The translations under genes and the position numbers were made by a program. A stretch of DNA of 56,155 nt from a virus (taxonomy: Duplodnaviria > Caudoviricetes), in the IMG/VR virus record IMGVR_UViG_3300032287_004275, positions 1-56,155 of that record; one strand, written 5' to 3'. Below, one piece after another: positions 10,593 to 50,890 of this stretch. The notes beneath the pieces are model-generated. The model had not been told where the DNA came from, made no database searches, and saw only the letters and a program-made list of their open reading frames with translations. How positions within the stretch are numbered: position 1 is the stretch's first letter; every line of letters starts with the position of its first letter.

Positions 10593-10928
10593 ATGAAAAG
10601 TACAGATTTTAAAAAAATTATTAAAGAAGCCGTAAGAGAAGCAATACAAGAGGAATTGAAAGATATTCTATTGGAAGCTATTAAAGTTCCAAAACAAATA
10701 GTTAGAGAATCTATCCAACCAATTGAAACTCCAAAACCAACATTTACTCAACCAACAATGGATTTGAGACAAAAATATAAAGATGTATTAGGAGAAACAG
10801 CTTTAAGTTTCAATTCAAGTGATGTTCAACAACCATTTAGACCACAAGTAAGTGATCCTGTAAATGGTAATTTAGGAGCTGGAGAGGTAGGAATGGATCA
10901 AATTATGAGTTTATTAAATACTAAATAA
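10593..10928 (+). CDS. hypothetical late protein with KKIIKEAVRE leader
   Basis: ORF track, late motif. Confidence 0.7.
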   Translation: MKSTDFKKIIKEAVREAIQEELKDILLEAIKVPKQIVRESIQPIETPKPTFTQPTMDLRQKYKDVLGETALSFNSSDVQQPFRPQVSDPVNGNLGAGEVGMDQIMSLLNTK

Positions 10929-29423: not shown

Positions 29424-29978
29424 ATGGATAATTTTGACTTAAAAAAATTCTTAAAAGAAAGTAAAGCTATTGAGAATTTAAACCCTATATTAAAAAAAGA
29501 TAATCTTAGTGAAATCAACATGCGTGATAAAATCAAAGAAATGATTTTAGCTGAACTAGAATTGGATGTTAATGACCCTGATAGAACTGATGCTGCAGAA
29601 GCAAGTGCTTATGATCCACTATATGAAGGCGATGATAAAGAAGAAGAGGATACAGAAAAAGAAGAAGCTTATATAGAGGGAGGTTTTGGTAGTTTTGAAG
29701 AAGCTAAAAAGAAAAAAGGAGAAGAAGTAGAAGATGTTGAAACAACAGATGTTGAAACAACCGATACAACTGAAGAAGTACCTGCTGAGGAAGCACCTGT
29801 AGCAGGTGGTTTAGAAGATGTAGCTGCTAATATGGAGGGTACAGAATCTGAATTAATGGGACACTTAATGGATGCCCTTAAAATTTCTAAAGGAATGGGC
29901 AATGAAAAACTTGAAACACAAATTGGAAATACACTTAAATTTTTCGTTAGCGAATATATTGGAAGTGGACAAGAGTAA
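29424..29978 (+). CDS. acidic putative internal head protein
   Basis: MDNFDLKKFLKE leader, many LxE sites. Confidence 0.65.
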   Translation: MDNFDLKKFLKESKAIENLNPILKKDNLSEINMRDKIKEMILAELELDVNDPDRTDAAEASAYDPLYEGDDKEEEDTEKEEAYIEGGFGSFEEAKKKKGEEVEDVETTDVETTDTTEEVPAEEAPVAGGLEDVAANMEGTESELMGHLMDALKISKGMGNEKLETQIGNTLKFFVSEYIGSGQE

Positions 29979-34238: not shown

Positions 34239-34676
34239 ATGGATAATTTTGATTTAAGAAAATATTTAGCTGAAGGTAAATTATATGAAGCTGCTATGGC
34301 TTGCCCTTTACCTACTCAAGATTTAGAACTTAACACTAAAAATAGAGACTCATCTATTAAAGCAGATTATATTAAATATGGTCCTTTAAATGTTGATGAA
34401 CCTGGAGATTATTGGGATGAATTAGCAGAACATTGGGACACAACAGTTGAAGCTGCCAAACAATCTTTATGTGCTAATTGTGCAGCATTTGATATTTCTC
34501 CAAGAATGGAAGATTGTATGCCTGGCCCATTATCAGATGAAGACGGTAGATTAGGATATTGTTGGATGCATAGTTTCAAATGCCACTCAGCTCGTACTTG
34601 TAGAACTTGGGCTAAAGGTGGTCCTATTGTAAAAGATAGTATATCTTACGAATGGCAAGAACGTAAAGAAAAATGA
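34239..34676 (+). CDS. Cys-rich metal-binding protein
   Basis: CANC, GYC..FKCHSARTC..W; MDNFDL leader. Confidence 0.65.
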   Translation: MDNFDLRKYLAEGKLYEAAMACPLPTQDLELNTKNRDSSIKADYIKYGPLNVDEPGDYWDELAEHWDTTVEAAKQSLCANCAAFDISPRMEDCMPGPLSDEDGRLGYCWMHSFKCHSARTCRTWAKGGPIVKDSISYEWQERKEK

Positions 34677-35259: not shown

Positions 35260-35796
35260 ATGAAAAAAGAAACTTTACGTATGCAGATGTTGGCGGGTAT
35301 CATTACTGAAAGTCAATATAAAGAAAAAATTCAAGAAAATAAAGTTGAAGGAATTGATGTTTCCCAAGTAAAAGATTTGATGAGTGATCCTAATGTTAAA
35401 AAAATGGCAGCTCAACTTAAATCAGACCCTAAATCTTTAAAAAATGCAATTAAATTTATTGCTGACCATAGTAAAGATAATACTTCTTTAGATGAAGAAC
35501 AATCCCTTGAAGAAGGATCCCTTAAAGATAGAATCAATTCAATTCTTTTAGGATCAGGAATTGCCGCTCCTATAGGATGGTTATTTGGATTTATGGCAGA
35601 TTCACAGTCTGTTGATGCTAGTTTACATGGCTTAGCAACTGCATTAACAGCAGCAATAATGATTGGTGGGATGGTTGCTCTTGGTACAACTCATGATAAA
35701 ACTCCTCAAAATCCAACAAAACAAGATATGAATGAGGTTGAAATAAGTGTTGAAGACCAAATTCAAAAAATTATTGATTTAGGAAAATCAATGTAA
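35260..35796 (+). CDS. putative head-packaged membrane protein
   Basis: RMQMLAGII N-terminal motif; two hydrophobic helices. Confidence 0.65.
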   Translation: MKKETLRMQMLAGIITESQYKEKIQENKVEGIDVSQVKDLMSDPNVKKMAAQLKSDPKSLKNAIKFIADHSKDNTSLDEEQSLEEGSLKDRINSILLGSGIAAPIGWLFGFMADSQSVDASLHGLATALTAAIMIGGMVALGTTHDKTPQNPTKQDMNEVEISVEDQIQKIIDLGKSM

Positions 35797-35846: not shown

Positions 35847-35880
35847 GTGGCCTAATCTTTGGATTAGGTCACTTTTTTTT
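35847..35880 (+). terminator. intrinsic terminator
   Basis: GTGGCCTAATC-TTTG-GATTAGGTCAC followed by T8. Confidence 0.85.
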
Positions 35881-35904
35881 GTATCTTTAAATATAAAATA
35901 GAAT

Positions 35905-44916: not shown

Positions 44917-45364
44917 GATTAAAGAAATAATCCGTAAAAAACTCAAAGAAATGAGTGCTACCAATGTTGGTGGTGCTTCTTTTTCAGCAGGAACTGGAGA
45001 AGGCTATGCTACACCAGCTGCTTTTGCTTCTAAAACTAACGCTAAGGGAGCTAAAAATATTTATTACTATAAGTTAGGATTTAAACCTGTCCCAAATATT
45101 AAACCAAAATCTTACGACAAGAAAAAATTGTGGGAAGACGAAAAGGAAAAAACGGGAGCAGATAAATTTCAAGATGATCGAGTAAAAGAATTTGAGCAAA
45201 TTGAAAATTTAATTAAAGAACTATCCCCACTTATATCAAACGCAAAAAACGAAACTATAGAATATTATGCTGCTAACCCAGGATCGTATGATATCTATAA
45301 ACCGTCTTCAATGGTTTTAGCATATATTCAAAAAGCAGTAGACTTATTAAAACAAAAACAATGA
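44909..45364 (+). CDS. head-module protein
   Basis: KIKEIIRKKLKEMS leader; YATPAAF. Confidence 0.65.
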   Translation: MDKIKEIIRKKLKEMSATNVGGASFSAGTGEGYATPAAFASKTNAKGAKNIYYYKLGFKPVPNIKPKSYDKKKLWEDEKEKTGADKFQDDRVKEFEQIENLIKELSPLISNAKNETIEYYAANPGSYDIYKPSSMVLAYIQKAVDLLKQKQ

Positions 45365-47097
45365 AAAAAACATTACAAGATCAGTATCTATTAATCAAAG
45401 AAGGTAAAGGACATAAAGGTGTTTTCTTAACTGAAGCTAAACGTGATTTTCCTCATATTGTACCAAATGCTGCTACATTTGAGGAAGCAGCTGCATCTCT
45501 TAAAACCAAAAACATAATCTCAGAAAATGTAATTGGTTTAAGCGTAGTTAACGGGTATGAGCCAAGAAAAAAAGAATCATATGAAACTGCATTTGAAGCA
45601 TTTTTGGCTGAAGCTAAAAAGAAAAAAGAAGAAGACGAAAAAGCTGAATTGAAAAAAACTTCAAAACAAGTAGAAGAAGATCTTGAACATAATTTTGACA
45701 GTAAAGACGAGAAAAACCCAGACAATTTAATATTCGATCAAATTATGATGGGGTATTATGCTGAAATGAAAGATCCTAAAAATGCTGAAAAAACCATGCA
45801 AGAATTAAAAGACATGGTATTTAAAAATTTAGCAAAAGACCCAATTTACTATACAAAAGATGGTCAATTTGGTGTTAAAGGTTTAGGATATACTACTGAA
45901 GCACCTGGTTTAGGTACTCCAAAAGAAGCTACTGGAAAATATAAATCTTCTGGTTATGGTAATTTAAGCGAAAATAAAGCAGGCGCATATGAAGAAACAT
46001 ATGATGAACTTAAAAAGCAATTAACAACAGATAAAGAAAATAAATTCTCCCCAGAAGACATTAAAGCTAAATTAAAGAAAAAACGCGAGGAAGAACTTGA
46101 ACGTAGAAAAAAAGCAGGTGAATCACTTGAAGAAATTACTTTACGTAAAGCAATTCAAGAAATGATTGATGCTGAATTGGAAGAAGCATATCAATTAGTA
46201 AATATCCGTCCTCAAGTAAGTGATAAAGAAAGAGAAGAAAGAGACCCACAACCATTTCTTACTGTATATTTAAAAGATACAACAGAAGAACTTTTAAAGA
46301 AAAACCAACACTTAAGAGTACTTAGAAACCCTAAAAACCCAGAAGAAATTACAGGTGTTGCTATTCGTTCTAGATTACTTTCTCCACAAAATTTAAAAAA
46401 ACTACCATATGATATTAACCCAATGTTTATAGGTTTTTTAAATACTGCTAATAACATTGGAGGTAAAATAACACTCCCTACAAGAGAAGGAGTTACAGAT
46501 GATTATACTTTGTTAAACAACGTTAATGTAGGTAGAGATGGAAGACTTTCATTTAAAACCCCAAATCCTAAGTATCAAAAACCAATGGGAGATGACATGG
46601 CTGAATCTTTACGTGAAAGTGTAGAAAAAGATCTTGCCGCAATTAATAAAGAAGCAGAACACGAAATTTTACAATCTAAACTAGATAAAATTGATGATTT
46701 AATTGATAGTAAAAAATCTAAACTTTCTAAACTTGACGAAGATGAAGATATGAAAGATTTAACTGATGCTAAAAAAGTTAAAGAGATTCAAAAAGATATT
46801 AAAGCTTTAGAAAAAGCAAAATCTAAAGTTGAAAAAATGATGGGTAAAACTAAAGGTAAGAAAAAAGAAGTAATTGACGAAATGGATAATTCCGATGATA
46901 TGGTATCGGATATTAATCCTGGATATATTAGAGATGCTGAAGAAAGATTAAGAGATGGGGAAAGTATTGATTCAATTGTTGGTAATTACCCAAATCTATC
47001 GTTTGATGATAAAAATAACTTAAAAAATTTTCTTACTTGGCAACAAGATTCAGATATTGGACAAAGTGAAGAATTAGACACTGAAGAAAATTACTAA
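45361..47097 (+). CDS. large charged prohead core polyprotein
   Basis: Many LxE sites; NLAKDPIYYT. Confidence 0.6.
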   Translation: MKKTLQDQYLLIKEGKGHKGVFLTEAKRDFPHIVPNAATFEEAAASLKTKNIISENVIGLSVVNGYEPRKKESYETAFEAFLAEAKKKKEEDEKAELKKTSKQVEEDLEHNFDSKDEKNPDNLIFDQIMMGYYAEMKDPKNAEKTMQELKDMVFKNLAKDPIYYTKDGQFGVKGLGYTTEAPGLGTPKEATGKYKSSGYGNLSENKAGAYEETYDELKKQLTTDKENKFSPEDIKAKLKKKREEELERRKKAGESLEEITLRKAIQEMIDAELEEAYQLVNIRPQVSDKEREERDPQPFLTVYLKDTTEELLKKNQHLRVLRNPKNPEEITGVAIRSRLLSPQNLKKLPYDINPMFIGFLNTANNIGGKITLPTREGVTDDYTLLNNVNVGRDGRLSFKTPNPKYQKPMGDDMAESLRESVEKDLAAINKEAEHEILQSKLDKIDDLIDSKKSKLSKLDEDEDMKDLTDAKKVKEIQKDIKALEKAKSKVEKMMGKTKGKKKEVIDEMDNSDDMVSDINPGYIRDAEERLRDGESIDSIVGNYPNLSFDDKNNLKNFLTWQQDSDIGQSEELDTEENY

Positions 47098-47098
47098 A

Positions 47099-47731
47099 AT
47101 GAACAAACAACTCTTAATAGAAACCAGACATTTTGTTCCCCAGCCGGTTCGCCTTTTAGAAGGGCTAAAAGGTAATGGAAACGTTTTTGTTGAAGGTATT
47201 TTAGCTACCGTTGAGGTAAAAAACGGTAACGGAAGATACTACAAACGCGAGTTGTGGGAACGTGAAATTGATAATTTTCAACAAAAAATATCTCAAAAAA
47301 CAACAGAAACATGTGGTGAATTAGACCACCCAGATTCTCAAGTAATCAATTTAAAAAATGCATCCCATGCTATTCGCAAAATGTGGTGGGATGGAGATGA
47401 AATATGGGGAATAGTTGAAATATTCTCAGACCCAGGACCAAAAGGAACAGTATCTGGTCGTATAGCAGGTGCTTTAGTTAACAATGGTTTAACAATTGGT
47501 ATTTCCTCTCGTGGAATGGGTTCCTTAAAACAAATGGGTGAGGTAATGGAAGTGCAAGATGATTTTGAATTACTTACCTTTGACCTTGTATCAAACCCTT
47601 CTAACCCAGATTCATGGATGAAAAATGGAGCGTTAAATGAATCTAGAACAACATATTTAGACCCATACGCGCGTACAAATTCAATTATAACCGAAATTTT
47701 ATGTGCTAAAGGCACATGCCCGATATTTTAA
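47099..47731 (+). CDS. gp21: prohead protease (T4 gp21-like)
   Basis: NGNGRYY, GELDHP, GISSRGMGS, FDLVSNPS. Confidence 0.95.
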   Translation: MNKQLLIETRHFVPQPVRLLEGLKGNGNVFVEGILATVEVKNGNGRYYKRELWEREIDNFQQKISQKTTETCGELDHPDSQVINLKNASHAIRKMWWDGDEIWGIVEIFSDPGPKGTVSGRIAGALVNNGLTIGISSRGMGSLKQMGEVMEVQDDFELLTFDLVSNPSNPDSWMKNGALNESRTTYLDPYARTNSIITEILCAKGTCPIF

Positions 47732-47919: not shown

Positions 47920-49158
47920 ATGGCAAAAAACAGAGAAATGCTTAAAGAAGCAATCGCTGAAGCTAAAGCTGTAAAAGAAATGGCAATAGCAAACGCAAAA
48001 GCAGCTCTAGAAGAAACCTTTACACCTCAACTTAAGTCTATGTTATCTCTAAAACTTCAAGAAATAGAACTCGATGAAGAGGAAAATGAAAAAGAAGGAT
48101 TTGGAGATTTCGACACTAAAGACAATGCTGGATTTGGTACAATGGATGCAAAAGCTTTAGATGAAAAAGAAGACAAAATGATGGAAGTTGATTTGGAAGA
48201 GCTTTTAGCAGAGCTAGAAAAAGAAGAAGTAGAAGAAGGAGAAGGTGAAAACCTTTACGAAGCTGAGGAAGGTGAAGAAGACGAAGTTGAAGCAACTGAA
48301 GATATAGATCTTTCAGATGATGAATTAAAGGAAATGATTGAAGACGTACTCGCACAAATGATTAAAGATGGTGAGATAGAAGCAGGACCTAATTTTGAAT
48401 CAGAAGAAGGTGAAGAATCTGAAGAAGGTGAATCTGAAGAATCTGAAGAATCCGAAGAAGAAGTAGATTTAGCAGAACTTTTAAGAGAAATCGAAGAAAT
48501 GGAAGAAATGAAAGAACCAGTAGACGAGCTTTTTGGAATGAAACCTAGATCAGTTAAAGAATTTGAAGCTGATTACCCAGGTTTATTAGATAAAGCTAAA
48601 GCTGCTGGAGATGAAAAAGAAAAAATTTCAATTCTTGCTGATGCAATGAAAAAATTCAGAGATGAATATGTCAAAGACACTAGCGTAGGTGTAGCTAATG
48701 CTGCTATAGCAAAAATATGGGAGTTCATAGGCGTTAACCCAGCTACTGTCCCAGGATTTGGTTCAGAAGGAAGAGGTGGTGCTTCAATGGCTGAAGCTGA
48801 AGAAATGAAAGCTGAACTTGAAGAAGCTCTTTCTACAATTGAAACTTTAAAAGCTGAACTTAACGAGATCAACATTTTGAACGCTAAACTTCTTTATTCA
48901 AACAAAATCTTCAAAGCTAAAAATTTGAACGAAAACCAAAAAGTAAAGGTATTAAGTTCGTTTGACAAAGCTACAAACGTAGGTGAAGTAAAAATGGTAT
49001 ATGAAACTTTAAACGAGGGAATTAAAGTTAAAAAAGAAACCATTAAAGAAAACCTAGGTAGAGCTTCTAAAGCAACTAATACCCCAACTACAAAACAACC
49101 AATCGTAGAGTCAAACGATGTATTTGCAAGAATGCAAAAATTGGCTGGATTAATTTAA
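47920..49158 (+). CDS. scaffold/prohead core protein (gp22-like)
   Basis: Very acidic coiled coil directly upstream of MCP; ends RMQKLAGLI. Confidence 0.8.
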   Translation: MAKNREMLKEAIAEAKAVKEMAIANAKAALEETFTPQLKSMLSLKLQEIELDEEENEKEGFGDFDTKDNAGFGTMDAKALDEKEDKMMEVDLEELLAELEKEEVEEGEGENLYEAEEGEEDEVEATEDIDLSDDELKEMIEDVLAQMIKDGEIEAGPNFESEEGEESEEGESEESEESEEEVDLAELLREIEEMEEMKEPVDELFGMKPRSVKEFEADYPGLLDKAKAAGDEKEKISILADAMKKFRDEYVKDTSVGVANAAIAKIWEFIGVNPATVPGFGSEGRGGASMAEAEEMKAELEEALSTIETLKAELNEINILNAKLLYSNKIFKAKNLNENQKVKVLSSFDKATNVGEVKMVYETLNEGIKVKKETIKENLGRASKATNTPTTKQPIVESNDVFARMQKLAGLI

Positions 49159-49195: not shown

Positions 49196-50890
49196 ATGTC
49201 AAGTATTAATTCTCTTTTAGAAAGCTCAGCCAACGGGTGGAGAAACATGCAGAGCGATGCTGCTCGTATGGCTAGCAAATGGACCAAAACAGGTCTATTA
49301 GAAGGATTAGGAAGCGAAGTTGAAAAAAACAACATGGCTTTGATCCTTGAAAACCAAGCAAAACAACTTGTTGTTGAACAATCTTCAACTAACGTAGGTG
49401 GTGGTACTTTTACAGTAGGACAAGGTGAACAATGGGCTGGTGTAGCTCTTCCATTGGTACGTAAAGTATTTGGTTCTTTATCAACTAAAGAATTCATGTC
49501 TGTACAACCAATGAACCTACCTTCAGGTCTTGTATTCTTCTTGGATTTCCAATATGGTGATGCAAATGGTAAAATTGCCCCAGGTGGACAAATGGGTCCT
49601 GGCGGTGATGCTTACGGTGCTACTTCATCTATGTATGGTAACACTAACCCAGGAAGATCAACAGATGCATCTCAAGGTTTATATGGTGCTGGTAGATTTG
49701 CTTACACAATCAACCAATTCTCAGCTTCAGTTGGTACTACAGTAGCAACATCATCTTGGGCAGATCTTCAGTATGCTTCTGAACTTTCTTCATCTTTTGC
49801 TAGCTATTCTACAGTAACAGTTAACTTGAATTCAGCAGGTCTTGTTCGCCCAGACTTGAAAGGTATTCGTGCATTCTTCTTGAACTCAGGTTCATCAGCT
49901 ACAGCAAATGCTCAATCATCAGCTCGTTTATTACCTCAATACACTAATACTGATGGAACAACTTTTATTAAATTTGTTTACTCAGGTTCAGTATCAAGTG
50001 CTGGTATTCCTATCACTGCAACTTCATCTTCTATCTTCTATAACATGCAACCTGCTGATAATTACAGAGGTGATTTTGAAGATAACAGTGGAGCTGGTTT
50101 CCCAAATGCTGATTCTACATCTGCTGATGCATTAGCTATTCCACAGATTAACATCAACATGAAATCTGAAGCTATTGTTGCTAAAACAAGAAAATTGAAA
50201 GCACAATGGACACCAGAATTCGCGCAAGATTTGAACGCATATCAATCATTGGATGCTGAAGCTGAATTAACTTCAATTATGTCTGAGTATATCGCTCTTG
50301 AGATCGATTTAGAAAACTTAGATATGTTGATCCAAGATGCTTCTGCATGGGATGAATATTGGAATGTTCAAAACAACCAACAGTTAAATGCTGCTAGAAC
50401 AGGATATGATAACCTAGGTTTCTACAACACACAAGGTCAATGGTTCCAAACTTTAGGAACTAAAATGCAAAAAGTTTCTAACAAAATTCACCAAAAGACT
50501 CTTAGAGGTGGTGCAAACTTTATTGTATGTTCTCCTACAGTTGCTACAATTCTTGAATCAATCCCAGGATTTGCTTCAACATCTGATGGTGATGTATCTA
50601 AAGCATCTTATGCATTTGGTATTCAAAAATCAGGTAACTTGAACAACCGTTATACAGTTTACAAAAACCCTTACATGACTGAAAACGTAATGTTGATGGG
50701 TTATAGAGGATCTCAATTCCTTGAAACAGGTGCTGTATTTGCTCCATATGTTCCATTAATCATGACTCCACTAGTGTACGATCCAAATACCTTTACACCA
50801 AGAAAAGGTTTATTGACTCGTTACGCTAAGAAAATGATTCGTCCTGAATTCTTTGGTCGTATTTTCGTATCTAACTTGAATGCTCTTTAA
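49196..50890 (+). CDS. gp23: major capsid protein (T4 gp23-like)
   Basis: ILENQ, VQPMNLPSGLVF, KTRKLKAQWTPEFAQDL, APYVPL, TRYA. Confidence 0.97.
   Translation: MSSINSLLESSANGWRNMQSDAARMASKWTKTGLLEGLGSEVEKNNMALILENQAKQLVVEQSSTNVGGGTFTVGQGEQWAGVALPLVRKVFGSLSTKEFMSVQPMNLPSGLVFFLDFQYGDANGKIAPGGQMGPGGDAYGATSSMYGNTNPGRSTDASQGLYGAGRFAYTINQFSASVGTTVATSSWADLQYASELSSSFASYSTVTVNLNSAGLVRPDLKGIRAFFLNSGSSATANAQSSARLLPQYTNTDGTTFIKFVYSGSVSSAGIPITATSSSIFYNMQPADNYRGDFEDNSGAGFPNADSTSADALAIPQININMKSEAIVAKTRKLKAQWTPEFAQDLNAYQSLDAEAELTSIMSEYIALEIDLENLDMLIQDASAWDEYWNVQNNQQLNAARTGYDNLGFYNTQGQWFQTLGTKMQKVSNKIHQKTLRGGANFIVCSPTVATILESIPGFASTSDGDVSKASYAFGIQKSGNLNNRYTVYKNPYMTENVMLMGYRGSQFLETGAVFAPYVPLIMTPLVYDPNTFTPRKGLLTRYAKKMIRPEFFGRIFVSNLNAL

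Follow-up and report, generated by a model that had tools for sequence, protein, structure and literature searches.

Bacteriophage T4 provides the closest described example of a phage that sends accessory proteins into its own head. In the cited sections of PMC5694885, a capsid-targeting sequence (CTS) is named as the means by which every T4 core protein enters the core, and the prohead protease gp21 is described as cutting after glutamate, with Alt being processed at ITE-6 and LTE-619. The internal proteins themselves are portrayed as diverse, with only the CTS in common (PMC3012670, cited part), and a T4 review from 2023 calls their localisation to the core 'mysterious' (PMC9958956, cited part). 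A scaffold tail that is copied by a second protein has been described in phage 80alpha, as covered in the cited part of PMC5644958: the last 16 residues of its scaffold form an amphipathic helix and a hook with the sequence R-I-I-K that bind the N-arm of the capsid protein, and CpmB of SaPI1 copies this tail and competes for its site on the N-arm.

Terminal peptides also bring cargo into shells in more distant systems. In the accounts consulted, encapsulin cargo proteins are diverse and are directed into an HK97-fold shell by a short terminal peptide. Encapsulins have no scaffold, protease or DNA, and their targeting peptides are usually C-terminal and of a different sequence. In the consulted descriptions of engineered P22 particles, it is the scaffold C terminus that gets a fused protein into the procapsid. 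In herpesvirus UL26/UL26.5, lambda C/Nu3 and P2 gpO, the coat-binding C terminus of the scaffold is shared and thereby serves as the entry into the procapsid.

Here we describe a leader peptide that combines elements of these systems. In the DNA that we analysed (the window; 56,155 bases, the whole viral contig of a T4-type myophage), a predicted 178-residue protein begins with a 26-residue leader that nearly copies the C-terminal tail of the phage's own head scaffold. Like the T4 CTS, which gp21 removes from IPI–III and Alt, the leader is a short N-terminal peptide on otherwise unrelated, fast-changing proteins, has an I/L-x-E protease site at its end, occurs together with a gp21/gp22/gp23 head set and is carried by what would be non-essential cargo (compared with the cited sections of PMC3012670, PMC9958956 and PMC5694885). 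It differs from the T4 CTS in having 26 residues with two sites rather than about ten residues, in carrying a motif that is also found at C termini and between domains, and in being a near-copy of the scaffold tail, whereas the T4 CTS is unlike the end of gp22 (..SVYAKVASRF). In sequence, we take the leader and the T4 CTS to be unrelated.

With 80alpha and CpmB, the leader shares the principle of a second protein that bears a copy of the scaffold C-terminal tail, and several tails here end in I-I-K. The CpmB tail, however, is C-terminal, satellite-derived and redirects capsid size, whereas the copy described here is N-terminal, lies on the phage's own candidate cargo genes and is followed by protease sites. 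The likeness to encapsulins is confined to the short terminal peptide on diverse cargo; the window encodes a scaffold, protease, portal and terminase, and its tag is proposed to be removed after loading. In nested genes and P22 fusions, a C-terminal domain is shared in full, as a result of nested translation or of engineering, whereas here some 10–13 residues have been copied, moved to the N terminus and spread over hundreds of gene families. We regard the leader as a variation on the T4 CTS principle, with scaffold mimicry as its twist. A link between the CTS and the scaffold tail was not found in the CTS literature examined, of which PMC3012670, PMC9958956 and PMC5694885 were covered in part, and the four motif strings were found in no paper of the literature searched.

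A T4-type head module with a cultured relative

The source of the window is an uncultured T4-like water phage. Its T4-type gp21/gp22/gp23 head set is complete, comprising an S77 protease, a scaffold and gp23 (Table 1); head maturation protease and major head protein are among the PHROG calls, PhoH is encoded downstream of the Gp23-family capsid protein, and the portal and terminase are also present. The scaffold has no Pfam or PHROG match of its own, and its identity is assigned from position, composition and homology to the immuto gene; a sequence search of the PDB gave no E value below 0.2 for it. The closest cultured relative is Flavobacterium phage vB_FspM_immuto (hereafter immuto), which has Flavobacterium sp. 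LMO8 as host and whose DNA is 76.7% identical in part of the head module; a literature search found no immuto virion proteomics. The S77 gp21-like protease is presumed to be the enzyme that removes the leader.

Two observations on this region are recorded here in their own right. Just upstream of the protease gene, a large charged protein (45361–47097, + strand) starts MKKTLQDQYLLIKEGKGHKGVFLTE-A, its immuto homologue immuto26A_200 having ..HFIAE-A, so that a T4-like F-I-A-E/L-T-E site lies about 25 residues in, where a processed core protein would be expected to have one. In one related record (G005; L211), protease and scaffold are each split into two ORFs, by frameshifts or assembly errors.

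Table 1. Coordinates of the head genes, of the 178-residue ORF and of the elements within and beside them (window numbering).
Feature	Coordinates	Strand	Evidence or remark
ORF, 178 aa	35260–35796	+	Leader, small helical domain, linker, two hydrophobic helices, C-terminal amphipathic helix
N-terminal leader, 26 aa, MKKETLRMQMLAGIITESQYKEKIQE	35260–35337	+	Conserved portable module; information content across 111 cargo-cluster representatives
Core motif RMQMLAGIITE (aa 7–17)	35278–35310	+	Copy of scaffold tail; ends in candidate site I-T-E
Candidate protease site I-T-E (aa 15–17)	35302–35310	+	ITE is a T4 gp21 site in Alt (PMC5694885, cited sections)
Second candidate protease site I-Q-E (aa 24–26)	35329–35337	+	Module end; L-N-E in most relatives; E26 invariant in alignment A1
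Candidate internal protease sites L-D-E (aa 77–79) and L-E-E (aa 83–85)	35488–35514	+	Linker ahead of hairpin
Hydrophobic helix 1, ILLGSGIAAPIGWLFGFMA (aa 95–113)	35542–35598	+	Kyte-Doolittle mean 1.73 over 19 residues; AF2 helix 103–114
Hydrophobic helix 2, GLATALTAAIMIGGMVALG (aa 124–142)	35629–35685	+	Kyte-Doolittle mean 1.81 over 19 residues; AF2 helices 122–136 and 138–141
Terminator-like hairpin	35847–35882	+	11-bp stem with 5 G-C pairs, then eight T (tail TTTTTTTTGT); just 3′ of the ORF
Prohead serine protease, gp21-like	47099–47731	+	Pfam Peptidase_S77, 4e-26; phrog_207, 2.9e-51
Head scaffold, 412 aa, acidic	47920–49158	+	Flanked by protease and MCP genes, as gp22 is; homologue of the immuto gene at the equivalent place
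Scaffold C-terminal tail, DVFARMQKLAGLI (aa 400–412)	49117–49155	+	Same tail in related scaffolds
Major capsid protein (MCP), gp23-like	49196–50890	+	Pfam Gp23, 3.1e-73; T4 gp23 structures, E ~1e-26

The leader repeats the scaffold tail

ORF 35260–35796 starts MKKETLRMQMLAGIITE, and the 412-residue scaffold ORF ends ...NDVFARMQKLAGLI*, its last residues being FARMQKLAGLI. Leader and tail have R-M-Q-x-L-A-G-[IL]-I in common, with the copy placed at the N terminus and not at the C terminus of its protein. In the six-frame translation of the 56,155-base window, the pattern [RK]MQ.LAG[ILV] has exactly two matches, which are these two termini, against 0.00017 expected from composition. This bears out the initial annotation, which had reported that the ORF begins with a near-identical version of the scaffold end; the ITE (residues 15–17), LDE (77–79) and LEE (83–85) sites and both hydrophobic segments are likewise as it described them. 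The motif was also sought in homologues, where that annotation had placed its refutation test, and is conserved there, which supports the observation. What it had overlooked is the 26-residue extent of the leader, the second site at its end and its character as a clade-wide module rather than a feature of a single gene. A further candidate copy at the C terminus of the protease (..ARTNSIITEILCAKG..) was dropped because the immuto protease ends ..RLDSIINNILRA, which marks this stretch as a conserved protease helix and not the motif.

The pairing of leader and tail was found again in immuto and in four of five near-complete related genomes. The immuto scaffold has SRWQKLAGIIK* as its last residues, the mutually unrelated ORFs immuto26A_41 and immuto26A_188 both start MKKQILSEQF[KR]RMQ[FK]LAGIITES, and immuto-type leaders and scaffold tails have E.F.RMQKLAGII in common. 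Five genomes that are 96–100% complete hold 0 to 4 leader genes apiece; two near-complete genomes have the scaffold tail and lack a leader gene, indicating that the leader tag system is dispensable.

The tail itself is widespread among related scaffolds. An upstream scaffold ORF was present at 76 of 80 viral-contig loci collected via the capsid protein, and it ends in F.R[MF][QR]KLAG[IL].. in 67 of these 76 and in the variant ..RM[RQK].[LI]AFY..KH* in the other 9; several related tails end ..LAGIIK*. The same tail type occurs in immuto, Mel-JY01, LR756508.1 and G006. In the distant T4-like phages Mel-JY01 (scaffold end ..ERMKKLAGIVK) and LR756508.1 (..SRMQKLADIS), no N-terminal copies were found elsewhere in the genome, which makes the tail the older of the two and the leader the copy. 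The N-terminal copy is thus an invention of the immuto-like clade, and leaders alone, searched by tblastn against 50,697 cultured phage records, matched only the four immuto records. Leader and scaffold tail do not co-vary strictly, which counts against a capsid-targeting reading: among five records looked at, one with an AFY tail still has a small ORF between protease and scaffold that bears the standard FIRMQKLAGIITE leader.

Anatomy of the 178-residue protein

A protein search seeded with ORF 35260 returned 101 matches, of which about 14 (P0004–P0017) are full-length homologues with 33–100% identity; the rest match only the first ~26 residues and are then fully divergent. In the alignment of 17–18 homologues (alignment A1), conservation is highest in the leader, E79 is invariant (as L-[DN]-E79) and both hydrophobic segments are kept. 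Alignment A1 and the AF2 model of the 178-residue ORF (pLDDT 73.8) together give the layout after the leader: a small helical domain (residues 34–70), a low-confidence linker with L-[DN]-E79, the hairpin, a disordered stretch and a conserved amphipathic C-terminal helix. Low-confidence linkers lie at residues 81–85, where pLDDT falls below 50, and at 142–161. The two hydrophobic helices are Gly/Ala-rich with a short loop between them, and the hairpin region itself is free of any [LIM]-x-E site. The candidate cargo in the window is a conserved protein with a predicted two-helix hydrophobic hairpin.

In the leader, the model predicts a helix at residues 3–11 followed by a non-helical stretch at 12–16. 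This predicted helix and break resembles the amphipathic helix and hook of the 80alpha scaffold and CpmB, as a likeness and not as homology.

Database searches gave the protein no name. Pfam returned nothing at the cut-off (the weak STI1-HOP_DP match, E 0.0021, reached 18.4 bits against a cut-off of 29.1), the PHROGs contained no matching family, a fold search of the AF2 model against the PDB found nothing at E ≤ 0.001, a protein atlas search with residues 27–178 gave no usable match, and tblastn of the ORF against 50,697 phage records found none. Among 10 ORFs scanned with Pfam and PHROGs, the upstream neighbour is without a family match and the downstream neighbour is an FAD oxidoreductase.

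A portable module on unrelated proteins

A DNA pattern for MQxLAGIITE occurs in at least 119 viral-contig stretches, and 116 of 119 stretches (among the matches listed) have other genes in common with the window or immuto, which places them in one clade. The listed matches comprise 145 unique motif copies: 137 are N-terminal, starting 6–22 residues past the start codon, 6 are C-terminal and 2 internal. At the fixed residues of these listed matches, all synonymous codons are in use (six for Leu and four each for Ala, Gly and Thr), and such free synonymous variation shows that selection acts on the peptide. Clustering of 246 unique leader proteins gave 111 unrelated cargo clusters, 74 of them singletons. 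Pfam recognised DUF6576 in three of the 111 representatives and DUF3081 in one; the remaining 107 had no match. A 34-position leader profile, run against 1.84 billion proteins, retrieved 2,115 cluster representatives at E ≤ 0.001, 315 of them at E ≤ 1e-10; in 144 of the best 150 of the 2,115 matches, the copies are again mostly N-terminal (135, with 7 internal and 3 C-terminal).

Across the 111 representatives, information content stays high between the start Met and motif position +18 and is at background (~0.4 bits) from +19/+20. Motif positions 0–9 were set by the search pattern, with the flanking positions free, and the invariance at positions 0–9 is partly by construction because several sets were retrieved through the motif. 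Position +2 varies (M in 62, K in 37, Q in 5 of the 111), and the neighbouring hydrophobic positions are invariant, a further point of likeness to the amphipathic helix of the 80alpha scaffold and CpmB. I-T-E is fixed in the leader proteins, and the module boundary coincides with the second [LIM]-x-E, read as I-Q-E26 in this ORF and usually as L-N-E elsewhere. Such a second site lies at +10 to +30 from the motif start in 208 of 246 leader proteins, compared with 20.7% of control 20-residue windows. Hydrophobic cargo accounts for 8 of 111 clusters and 67 of 246 proteins, a count biased upwards by the use of ORF 35260 as the seed of the protein search.

Leader genes are located in variable regions, with head-to-tail fusions among them. 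Many lie beside the phage groES–groEL pair; others lie by an FAD oxidoreductase, recA/ssb or glycosyltransferases, or between protease and scaffold. The DNA word ATATTTAT stands before 48 of 143 leader genes (loci L006–L124), where by eye it lies within ..ATATTTATAA[TA]AAA.., about 10–25 bases ahead of the start codon; it is absent upstream of ORF 35260 and may be a clade-specific promoter.

Several proteins depart from the single N-terminal tag. Double or internal tags occur in P0107, P0108, P0112, P0154, P0191, P0202 and P0218, and two large proteins (874 and 1,005 residues) carry the tag at the N terminus and again near the C terminus, about 90 residues from the end in the larger; the arrangement of these sequences suggests polyprotein-like processing or double anchoring. 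The motif is at or near the C terminus in a charged coiled-coil family and a family of about 335 residues (L023, L107, L041, L103; L115, L015), with extra domains fused behind it in some members. A separate family of mostly ~77–78 residues (a few are longer), which is not in the window, ends ..EEI[KR].[MW]Q[VLI]RAGIIK*, a helix-and-hook-like ending. It was seen at seven named loci (L007, L008, L014, L018, L021, L046 and L050) and about 18 more, and its gene immediately precedes a leader gene in the cases inspected. In yet another protein (L029:5896–6315, + strand), a lipoprotein-type signal (..KKFAVGGAMAAAIFLPSC..) comes straight after the tag and would be N-terminal only once the tag is cut off.

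The window also contains other recurrent protein starts. Two unrelated ORFs (29424–29978 and 34239–34676, + strand) begin with a second leader class, M-D-N-F-D-L-[KR]-K-[FY]-L-x-E, that is also found on three immuto ORFs and is N-terminal in 21 of 23 regular-expression contexts at the loci at hand. Its length and its Y-L-A-E ending presumably place it nearer in appearance to the T4 CTS. The ORFs starting at 10593, 32728, 33769, 34930, 38071, 38899 and 44909 (+ strand) open with a K/R-x-x-[IL]-[KR]-E-x-[IVL]-x-x-E motif of amphipathic character that resembles the scaffold N terminus (MAKNREMLKEAIAEAK) and carries early [LIV]-x-E sites; they may represent a third leader class.

A proposed route into the prohead

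From these comparisons, we consider it fairly probable that the leader targets its protein to the capsid by imitating the scaffold tail and is clipped off by the S77 prohead protease; the hairpin protein would be its cargo here. The protein would be made as a 178-residue precursor whose first 26 residues act as the capsid-targeting leader, their core F/L-R-M-Q-x-L-A-G-I-I copying a gp22-type scaffold tail. During prohead assembly, the leader would make the contact that the scaffold tail makes, and the protein would be built into the core under the gp23 shell; this contact would lie on the inner face of the capsid protein or inside the scaffold core. The gp21-like S77 protease would then cut after I-T-E17 and/or I-Q-E26, and probably also after L-D-E79 or L-E-E85. 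The tag would depart with the scaffold fragments, whereas the hairpin product would remain in the head and accompany the DNA into the next host. Binding, cleavage, packaging, ejection and membrane action of the leader proteins are all steps that we infer. Two features count against loading: two hydrophobic helices would rather be expected to take a protein into the membrane of the producer cell than into the prohead core, and the lipoprotein-type signal after one leader would be odd for a capsid-internal protein.

The partner of the leader could equally be the scaffold core as the MCP. T4 cores containing internal proteins can form without gp23. A comparison of 7 AFY-tail with 26 LAG-tail phages found no MCP column, among 615, that separates the two groups, and thus lends no support to the MCP as partner; a complex prediction for the MCP (alignment A2) with ORF residues 1–40 (alignment A1) gave neither support nor contrary evidence. 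The initial annotation had proposed that the protein docks on the scaffold site of the MCP and is released as a membrane-inserting ejection or host-takeover protein. Its general direction gains from the tail copy, the recurrence in relatives, the T4-type protease sites after the tag and the more than 100 unrelated carriers; the MCP as docking site drew no such gain, and injection followed by membrane insertion stays at the level of inference at which that annotation had put it.

A far-reaching version of the model can be formulated, which we regard as doubtful. The tag would mimic the scaffold's helix and hook and fill the scaffold site on the gp23 N-arm; in this clade, the contact between scaffold and coat would have become a general loading port that works in any position and serves some two thousand cargo families. 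Membrane hairpins, among the commonest of this cargo, and at least one pre-lipoprotein would be unmasked by the protease in the head and injected, to insert into the membrane of the next host as a channel, exclusion or takeover device.

Competing readings

Other readings explain part of the evidence. The tag could direct ORF 35260 into the prohead core as an accessory core or scaffold component, comparable to T4 gp67/gp68, that is chopped up and expelled at maturation instead of being delivered. Such a fate would suit the conserved internal L-x-E sites (including the invariant E79), the low-confidence linkers at 81–85 and 142–161 and the scaffold-like appearance of proteins with C-terminal motifs (the coiled-coil family and the 77-residue family ending ..RAGIIK*), and T4 core proteins are indeed described as being cut into short fragments (PMC5694885, cited sections). 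We nevertheless think it unlikely, because 111 unrelated cargo clusters, mostly singletons and spread at 0–4 per genome, are not the pattern of an assembly component, and no [LIM]-x-E lies inside the hairpin region. The common peptide might instead have no role in the capsid and serve as a handle for a phage or host factor such as phage GroES/GroEL, as a protease or degradation adaptor or as a membrane-targeting helix, the scaffold using the same factor. The many leader genes adjoining groES–groEL fit this proposal, as do the incomplete co-variation of leader and scaffold tail, the 8 of 111 hydrophobic clusters and the one lipoprotein-type signal. It becomes quite unlikely in view of the module ending at prohead-protease-type sites, of the scaffold being the only structural protein with the motif, at the terminus that binds coat protein in 80alpha, and of an architecture and genomic context that fit the T4 CTS system; leader genes also cluster at places other than groES–groEL (FAD oxidoreductase, recA/ssb, glycosyltransferases and the protease–scaffold gap).

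ORF 35260 could also be a membrane protein of the producer cell, holin- or antiholin-like or acting in superinfection exclusion, with a scaffold resemblance that has no functional role. Its small size, its two Gly/Ala-rich hydrophobic helices with a short loop and its position as the last gene of its transcription unit, before the terminator-like hairpin, would agree with this. Set against class II holins, it has the two helices but lacks a holin signature and a lysis-cassette context. Neither Pfam nor the PHROGs contain a holin family that matches, neither flanking ORF is a lysis gene (10 ORFs scanned), and the leader is both the most conserved part of the family and common to more than 100 soluble unrelated proteins, which makes a producer-cell role very unlikely as the explanation. 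Last, conservation might act on the DNA, the gene 5′ ends being a recombination junction or regulatory cassette that shuffles genes, with the peptide a by-product. Gene-shuffling cassettes have been proposed for the hyperplastic regions of T4-type phages, the word ATATTTAT recurs before 48 of 143 leader genes, and leader genes lie in variable regions, some of them fused head-to-tail. This reading is largely refuted by the codon data, with all synonymous codons used at conserved residues; moreover, the motif also occurs at C-termini and inside proteins and matches the scaffold tail rather than a gene start, so that we give the DNA-level explanation hardly any credence.

Implications for T4-type heads

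How proteins are chosen to enter T4-type heads has been an open question since the CTS was discovered. If the leader is a scaffold-mimicking CTS, as we favour, nature would here be giving a direct hint on this selection, because the tag is the scaffold's own tail. The question of whether the tag acts as the tail can be reduced to two peptides and one capsid protein, with immuto available as a cultured relative. Proteins that carry the tag are candidates for injection and form an unannotated pool (Pfam matches in 4 of 111 representatives; 2,115 profile representatives), and the tag would be a natural counterpart of the engineered scaffold-fusion loading of virus-like particles. A further prediction of the model is that the T4-like head carries a membrane-type hairpin protein, which would be unusual if true, and mimicry at the gp23 N-arm, should it prove true, would supply a first mechanistic model for the way in which CTS peptides of the T4 type locate the prohead.
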